Assembly: GCA_048886685.1 (NCBI GenBank)
Contig: JBHLKM010000002.1
Location: forward strand, 135,532 to 199,531
DNA: 64,000 nt
Direction of reading: 5' to 3'
Origin: Candidatus Hodarchaeota archaeon
GTDB lineage: Archaea > Asgardarchaeota > Lokiarchaeia > Sigyniarchaeales > SOKP01
Positions 41,408 to 42,739 of this stretch are shown piece by piece; position 1 is the first letter of the stretch; each line of letters opens with the position of its first letter. A program made the translations under genes and the position numbers. The notes beneath the pieces were generated by a model that worked only from the letters and a program-made list of their open reading frames with translations, was not told where the DNA came from and ran no database searches.

Positions 41408-42739
41408 CTAAAAGATATTTTCATCTAAAACTATAGTTTCAGTTCTATCAGGACCAATTGAGATCATGGCTATTTCTGTTTCTAATTCTTCTTTAATTGC
41501 TTGAATATAGACTTTCATTGTATCTGGTAATGCATCATAGCCTTTTAATGCGATTTCTAACCACTGATCTCTTTTGAGTTCTTCCCATCCCTCAAAGGTT
41601 CTATATATTGGTTTACACTTTTCAATTATTTCATGTTGAATCGGCCAGCTTTCAAGAATTTCACCGTCTAATTTGTAAGCAGTACACATTTTTATAGGGC
41701 TTATACCCTGTAAAGCATCTAAAAGAGTAATGACAATTTTATCTATTCCATTTATCATTATCCCATACTTAATATTAAAGAGATCAATCCATCCTATTCT
41801 ACGTGGTCTTCCTGTAACTGTCCCATATTCATGACCCTGCTCTCGAATTTTTTCAGCAGTGTTATTAAATAATTCTGTAGGAAACGTTCCAGCTCCTACT
41901 CTCGATGTATAAGCTTTTATAACTCCTAATATTTTTTTTATCTTTTTTGGGGGGATACCTGTACCTGCAGAAATTCCTAATGCATTCGAACTAGATGATG
42001 TACCAAAGGGGTAAAATCCATGATCAATACCTAAAAGGTTACCCTGAGCGCCTTCAAATAAAACTTTTTTACCTTCATCGATAGATTTATTTAAATAGTA
42101 AGCAGAATCAATTACATAATGTTTAAGTTTCTCTCCATATTTTTTATATTCTTGATATATTCTTTCAAAAGATTCATCCCAATTAGGATCATAGTTTTTT
42201 ATTTGTTTTTTTTTGATTTCAAAGAGCTTTTCTAGTTTTGGTTTTAGAAATTCAGGATGTATTAAATCAAATACTCGAATGCCCCAGCGTGCAACTTTAT
42301 CAGAATATGTAGGACCAATACCTCTTTTAGTTGTACCTGCGCTATACTTCCCTTTTGATTCTTCTTCTAAGCCATCTAAAACCCGATGGAATGGAAAGAT
42401 TACATGTGCAGTTGAACTTAGTTTCAAATTTATTTTTTTATCAAGTTTTTTTAAATTATCTATTTCTTCGAGTAATACCTTTGGATCAATAACACATCCA
42501 TTCGCTATAACACATTCTTTTTCTAATGGAGCTCCACTGGGGATGAGTTTGAATTTATATTTAATTCCATCAGCCTCAATTGTATGACCTGCATTATTTC
42601 CCCCGTTATATCTTACAACGATATCTGCTTTCTGTGCTAAATAATCAACAAATTTGCCTTTTCCCTCGTATAGGGCTGACATGCGATTTGCATGTTAAAC
42701 TCCCCACGAGAGACCTATTACGGCAATGTTATCACTCAT
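41408..42739 (-). CDS. purA: Adenylosuccinate synthetase, split by a 30-nt intron (exons 42739-42700 and 42669-41408; 433 aa spliced)
   Basis: Spliced N-terminus [22 protein letters not shown]; [46 protein letters not shown]. Confidence 0.93.
42670..42699 (-). other. Predicted 30-nt BHB-type mRNA intron in purA
   Basis: UUUAACAUGCAAAUCGCAUGUCAGCCCUAU; central helix GGGG/CCCU, bulges AG^U and AU^A, inner stem with 8 of 9 positions paired, loop AAAUC, exon-exon stem CUCUCG/CGAGGG; in-frame UAA. Confidence 0.85.

Follow-up and report, generated by a model that had tools for sequence, protein, structure and literature searches.

The window, a stretch of 64,000 nucleotides, contains a purA gene on its minus strand, in which a short insert interrupts the beginning of the coding sequence. 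The gene can be read as follows:

42700 to 42739, minus strand: purA exon 1, codons 1 to 13 and the G of the Asp14 codon, with the ATG at 42739
42670 to 42699, minus strand: putative BHB-type intron of 30 nt in phase 1, whose GTT is directly followed by an in-frame TAA
41408 to 42669, minus strand: purA exon 2, from the AC of Asp14 through the stop codon

Exon 1 matches the N-terminus of intronless PurA orthologues. The joined frame encodes 433 aa with WGDEGKGK, the unspliced frame reads ...Trp-Gly-Val-stop, and the GDEGKG P-loop motif is formed only once the insert is removed. The initial annotation had proposed that the insert splits the Asp codon (G+AC) of this P-loop, and indeed the sequence was found as quoted. 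It had also stated that a single 30-nt register regenerates Asp and that this register is the one predicted from the BHB; of 13 registers tested, only shift 0 gave Asp and WGDEGK, and adjacent registers gave Tyr, Val or a stop. The equivalent residue of the E. coli enzyme, Asp13, has been described as essential, with 99% conservation across PurA sequences (PMC12884076). The ORF caller placed the start inside the insert, and its product of 424 aa, which opens with [10 protein letters not shown], is the mis-started entry of a public collection. PurA scored above the family cutoff with PF00709 and TIGR00184; exon 2 alone reached 518 bits, with a match from profile position 10. A second, intact purA had to be looked for, and protein and Pfam searches found only this one copy in the genome (4.4 Mb, 100% complete, 8% estimated contamination). 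Four actin-family genes are consistent with an Asgard archaeon. The divergent neighbor of purA, at 42958 to 43890 on the plus strand, has an IFT52 GIFT-like domain, and its synteny with purA is kept in the metagenome contig L413, which is described below. Elsewhere in the window, an ORF at 26274 to 27434 on the minus strand looks, by eye, gelsolin-like at its N-terminus and helix-extension-helix-like at its C-terminus.

From 5' to 3', the intron is built of 1 nt, a 9-nt arm, a 5-nt loop, a 9-nt arm, 4 nt and 2 nt. Folding of the junction region, as had been proposed, gave -24.1 kcal/mol, far more stable than shuffled sequences (z = -4.3; 0 of 200 shuffles as stable). The predicted elements are:

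42702 to 42705, minus strand: exon-1 (5') strand of the 4-bp central helix, GGGG, pairing with CCCU
42672 to 42675, minus strand: 3' strand of the central helix, CCCU in the intron
42699 to 42701, minus strand: 5' bulge AG^U, with the expected cut site at 42700/42699
42669 to 42671, minus strand: 3' bulge AU^A, opposite one additional U (42706), with the expected cut site at 42670/42669
42676 to 42698, minus strand: intron stem-loop (helix h') of 9 bp with one mismatch and a 5-nt loop
42683 to 42691, minus strand: apical GC-AAAUC-GC of the intron stem-loop
42663 to 42668, minus strand: exon-2 strand of the exon-exon helix, pairing here with 42707 to 42712

The extra U opposite the 3' bulge was thus correctly noted at the outset. 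The pairing of the flanking exons, also claimed, holds for this gene but is not conserved: the shifted exon-exon helix with the extra U is present in only 11 to 13 of 26 distinct junctions among relatives, and the first exon-exon pair of the canonical hBHBh' motif forms in none of the 26. Since only about half of the relatives have an exon-exon helix, the conserved motif is of the relaxed type, and its conserved element, as read from the alignments, is the central helix plus the 5' bulge plus the intron helix. The absence of the exon-exon helix in half of the relatives counts against a BHB intron, as does the fact that the BHB conformer is not the predicted fold of lowest energy. The ViennaRNA minimum is a slipped conformer at -21.4 kcal/mol versus -17.9 for the BHB conformer (about 3.5 kcal/mol lower), and the prediction therefore does not have the cleavable form as its ground state.

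An insert at the same site was found in 28 of 130 purA genes of the order and class and was absent from 102. The 28 genes belong to four genera of the window's family, and their inserts measure 30 nt (n = 12), 31 nt (n = 14) or 32 nt (n = 2). Those of 31 or 32 nt, 16 in all, are frame-shifting, the BHB register is kept at all three lengths, and unspliced reading runs into a stop within about 23 codons in every intron-bearing purA. A search of 300 genomes of the phylum with a pattern that assumes this exon context gave matches in the window's family only. A GTDB-wide pattern scan was too loose, its matches being unrelated bacteria, and a metagenome search for the locus gave only distant PurA matches (50 to 60% identical).

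Across the 26 distinct junctions, the central helix and the first four h' pairs were 94.7% paired, compared to 25 to 61.5% when the alignment was slid by 1 to 3 columns; for the central 4-bp helix, 97.9% of cells were paired across 24 sequences. Changes on both sides were seen in 7 of 11 pairs, including all five basal intron pairs (MAFFT alignment), and covariation was 0.282 versus ≤0.109 in the slid controls. Furthermore, the bulges read AG^N and AN^A in 26 of 26 distinct junctions. The Gly13 codon, whose silent third base is the first bulge base, is GGA in all 28 intron-bearing genes versus 31 of 84 intronless ones, with a nominal p of 3e-10 that overstates the case because kin are not independent. 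The Asp-restoring register is unique in 8 of the 10 intron-bearing genes looked at first, and in the other two it is one of 2 to 3 equivalent registers.

The rest of purA had been called intact, and the 433-aa joined frame and purifying selection on exon 2 bear this out. The dN/dS comparison proposed for both exons gave 0.04 to 0.13 for exon 2 of this purA versus relatives, and exon 1 is nearly devoid of replacement changes among close relatives (pN, 0.00 to 0.05). On exon 2, dN/dS was 0.095 among intron-bearing and 0.088 among intronless genes. The joined frames are full length in 26 of the 28 genes; one is shortened on a fragmentary contig, and one has a private stop. The latter, an intron-bearing purA (L176; G083:C126), has its in-frame stop about 40 codons in and is possibly a decaying copy or an assembly error. 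Four congeners that are 88 to 97% complete (G002, G005, G034 and G099) gave no purA match with this query, and some lineages may manage without purA.

For the splicing enzymes, there are two EndA paralogues, on C18 and C5 of this genome (G000), and a single RtcB. The alpha (catalytic) EndA subunit keeps the Tyr, His and Lys motifs and is closest to PDB 3p1z, and one of its segments lines up with the loop that carries K44-P-R46 in the crenarchaeal enzyme. This loop and its Lys (K44) confer cleavage of relaxed motifs on the crenarchaeal EndA (PMC3241643); according to one study cited there, a related A. pernix enzyme cleaves the relaxed cbf5 motif poorly. Two EndA paralogues are present in 44 of 60 Asgard genomes, and the same preprint states that no intervening sequence of Asgard archaea has so far been shown to be spliced in the cell (bioRxiv 10.64898/2026.10.13.758758).

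Our literature search, which covered mainly open-access papers, gave no report of a BHB intron in purA or in Asgard mRNAs. In that literature, the only archaeal coding sequence named with such an intron is cbf5 (PMC7714728), for which splicing was shown in Desulfurococcales and Sulfolobales (Watanabe 2002; Yokobori 2009, PMC2738675). Like the purA insert, the cbf5 intron is short, lies within the coding sequence, has an unconventional BHB with cuts past the second bulge base, needs a hetero-oligomeric endonuclease and has been lost in some lineages. However, gene and phylum differ, and the splicing of cbf5 was shown by cDNA, while that of purA is deduced from sequence; moreover, the purA insert is one of many per genome, has 30 to 32 nt and a conserved apical loop, and has undergone many state changes within one family. 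In Haloferax volcanii, the BHB intron in the 5' untranslated region of HVO_1309 (46 nt removed) also makes an mRNA the substrate of the splicing endonuclease, but it lies outside the coding sequence, and the reading frame does not depend on splicing (PMC7714728). The BHB introns of Asgard tRNAs share with the purA insert the phylum, the motif, the presumed enzymes and repeated gains; that study, however, deals with tRNA genes only, with Freyr-, Jordi- and Atabeyarchaeaceae as focal families, and mentions neither mRNA nor cbf5 or purA (bioRxiv 10.64898/2026.10.13.758758).

The purA insert has counterparts in other genes of the genome. In a motif-free census, this genome was compared by plain alignment with 885 intact ORFs, which came from five relatives (1.6 Mb of sequence) and cover 698 loci. 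Eleven distinct frame-breaking inserts were found, eight of them internal (that of purA included) and all eight 29 to 34 nt long; the three C-terminal ones were set aside, those of 35 and 72 nt as probable alignment artifacts and one of 30 nt as ambiguous. The best BHB register lay within the registers allowed by homology in 8 of 8 cases, with the full central helix in 6, a pattern that would arise by chance at a rate of 0.45% per register, or 1.3% if any of three registers may count; several of the inserts have more than one equivalent register. In-frame open indels are mostly 9 to 18 nt long, and none of the 11 of ≥18 nt had its best BHB register on the homology register in a first scoring. 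The inserts other than that of purA are:

28163 to 28192, minus strand: 30-nt BHB-type insert with a 5-nt loop in a scramblase-like gene, found by comparison with an intronless orthologue without use of the motif
G000 C3:215413-215441, plus strand: BHB-type census insert
G000 C20:41175-41204, minus strand: BHB-type census insert
G000 C18:88180-88213, plus strand: BHB-type census insert
G000 C40:3422-3451, plus strand: BHB-type census insert
G000 C2:6605-6635, minus strand: BHB-type census insert
G000 C4:207081-207110, minus strand: BHB-type census insert

The scramblase-like gene is split into ORF pieces at 28172 to 28405 and 27665 to 28102; its insert is absent in a relative and has its BHB register within the homology registers. 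By their motifs, we take the hosts of the six inserts on other contigs to be uvrB and the genes for a GH38 mannosidase, a CO dehydrogenase alpha subunit, an acetoacetyl-CoA synthetase, a PAC2-like protein and an 88-aa protein. Rough scaling by aligned bases, which misses introns shared with the relative, suggests a few dozen such introns per genome. When BHB motifs were scanned for de novo, with a filter for joined ORFs, the yield did not exceed that of the mirror-geometry control (66 versus 80), and the scan therefore gives no intron count. For the tRNA genes, ARAGORN solutions with one intron of the same build, measuring 31 nt in Gly and 30 nt in Lys and Ala, are plausible but not unique. 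ARAGORN also called a tRNA-Sec at G000 C1:221073-221165, and many other tRNA genes appear to be missed or miscalled because of introns.

A single clade of intron-bearing purA genes was rejected (AU test, p of about 1e-61), and 9 to 10 state changes are needed. The closest sequence, on the metagenome contig L413 (JGI Ga0452204_066001), is sister to this purA (support 100/98), syntenic and 93% identical in exon 2 but has no intron. Among the informative sites located 59 to 8 nt upstream of the junction, 10 of 11 place L413 with more distant intronless genes, whereas only 1 of 98 downstream sites is discordant. Indeed, leader and exon 1 of L413 (2940 to 3050) resemble those of more distant intronless species, and the corresponding segment here is:

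42707 to 42759, minus strand: putative recombination patch of about 52 nt (leader and exon 1), whose ancestry follows the intron state and not the rest of the gene

The intron state of L413 thus seems to have changed together with a patch of DNA of at least 52 and at most about 220 nt, unless the contig is an assembly chimera. A loss in L413 would be the one-step reading; reverse transcription of the cell's own mRNA does not account for such a loss, L413 having a foreign exon 1. A search of the genome for a reverse transcriptase (RVT_1) gave no match. A second case is G093 (L158), whose exon 1 and intron are nearest to those of G016 (L005), from which they differ by 5 and 19%, respectively. 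The exon 2 sequences of the two differ by 24% and lie in different supported clades, which suggests, as far as trees and distances go, sideways transfer of the intron with its flank. Such closely related alleles with and without the intron offer a way into how these introns come and go.

The initial annotation had gone on to claim that AMP synthesis depends on splicing and that this could be a regulatory checkpoint. The first claim would hold for de novo IMP-to-AMP synthesis only; apt (adenine phosphoribosyltransferase) was found above its curated cutoff, along with purB and purF, and with this salvage route only the de novo step would depend on splicing. The second found no positive support, given the patchy intron and the presence of apt. 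A purine-responsive checkpoint added to splicing would fit the apical GC-ANNYC-GC, which is more conserved than silent sites even above a poorly paired stem (8 of 10 sites nearly invariant versus 3 of 85 fourfold-degenerate sites in 13 congeners; seven neighboring intron sites are not conserved). It would also fit the competing fold, which hides the bulges, and the BHB intron of the Haloferax 5' untranslated region, which appears to influence expression (PMC7714728). However, 78% of the orthologues, the closest sister sequence included, lack the intron, at least 9 to 10 state changes lie on the gene tree, no Rfam element matches, and the intron shares its 29- to 34-nt build with inserts in unrelated genes of the genome. 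Five-base loops, often ending in UC, also cap most of these other inserts, and a general splicing role of the loop is therefore as likely as a purine-specific one; patch recombination could contribute to its conservation. As a genome repeat family, GCANNYCGCA was not found, and the matches listed were not in intron-like contexts. Taken together, we regard a purine-responsive checkpoint as improbable.

Should the insert not be spliced, purA could be a pseudogene or yield an N-terminally altered protein from an internal start, with AMP made by adenine salvage. Salvage through apt, the four congeners lacking a purA match and an in-frame ATG within the insert would all suit this idea, but an internal start exists in just 6 of the 28 intron-bearing genes, and the truncated product would lack the first strand and the essential Asp (PMC12884076). 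The dN/dS of about 0.09, an exon 1 nearly free of replacement changes, the full-length joined frames in 26 of 28 genes and the presence of purB and purF make decay or an internal start very unlikely. Slightly less credible still is that the ribosome hops over the insert on uncut RNA, as in translational bypassing of the T4 gene 60 type. In most copies a stop codon does follow the 5' junction closely, where a hairpin has its base, but a ribosome landing in the exon-2 frame would read Tyr or Asn in 26 of the 28 genes, and one landing in the exon-1 frame of this genome would read Val. Since the insert splits the Asp codon and the frames offer Tyr, Asn or Val, no hop gives Asp here; no take-off codon with a matching landing codon was found that would leave the protein unchanged, and inserts of 30, 31 and 32 nt all preserve the BHB register. 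That the insert is an assembly or sequencing artifact, for which the 8% estimated contamination could be cited, is next to impossible, as same-site inserts of diverged sequence occur in 27 other, independently assembled genes. A self-splicing group I or II intron or a homing intron was also considered and rejected, the insert having only 30 nt and neither a ribozyme core nor an encoded enzyme; Rfam gave no match near the gathering score for the intron.

The purA insert is thus very probably an archaeal BHB-type mRNA intron that is spliced, and we infer its cutting and ligation in the cell from the conserved site, the unique register at the homology junction, the covariation in the central and h' helices, purifying selection, the single purA and the encoded endonuclease and ligase. 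Judged by sequence, it has every testable feature of a relaxed archaeal BHB and departs from the strict canonical motif. On unspliced mRNA, the ribosome would halt after codon 14. The transcript would fold into the relaxed BHB, a two-subunit EndA would cleave both 3-nt bulges past their second base, and RtcB would ligate the exons, by which the GAC codon of the essential Asp would be restored. In eukaryotes, the HAC1/XBP1 mRNAs undergo nonspliceosomal splicing under stress regulation, with Ire1 acting on two stem-loops and a tRNA ligase (RtcB in animals) joining the ends. The purA mRNA would likewise pass from an endonuclease acting on structured sites to a tRNA ligase, but the endonuclease would be EndA on a BHB and not Ire1 on two stem-loops, and stress regulation is a feature of HAC1/XBP1. 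The purA intron would be one of probably dozens of mRNA mini-introns that are tolerated in this lineage and spliced constitutively; it may persist because it is located where exact removal alone is viable, and its presence may vary between lineages partly through short-patch DNA recombination.

A wider proposal is that splicing of coding mRNAs by EndA and RtcB is routine in this Asgard family, in dozens of genes, and that the 30-nt introns are small genetic elements that move between species as patches of about 50 to 200 nt without a homing enzyme, their conserved apical loop being read by a splicing or regulatory factor. We hold this to be doubtful; if true, the closest relatives of eukaryotes would own a tunable, nonspliceosomal mRNA-splicing layer over core metabolism. 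Confirmation of purA splicing itself would mean that Asgard archaea rely on tRNA-type mRNA splicing for core metabolic genes and that many of their gene models are wrong at active sites, as in the public purA record that lacks the essential Asp.
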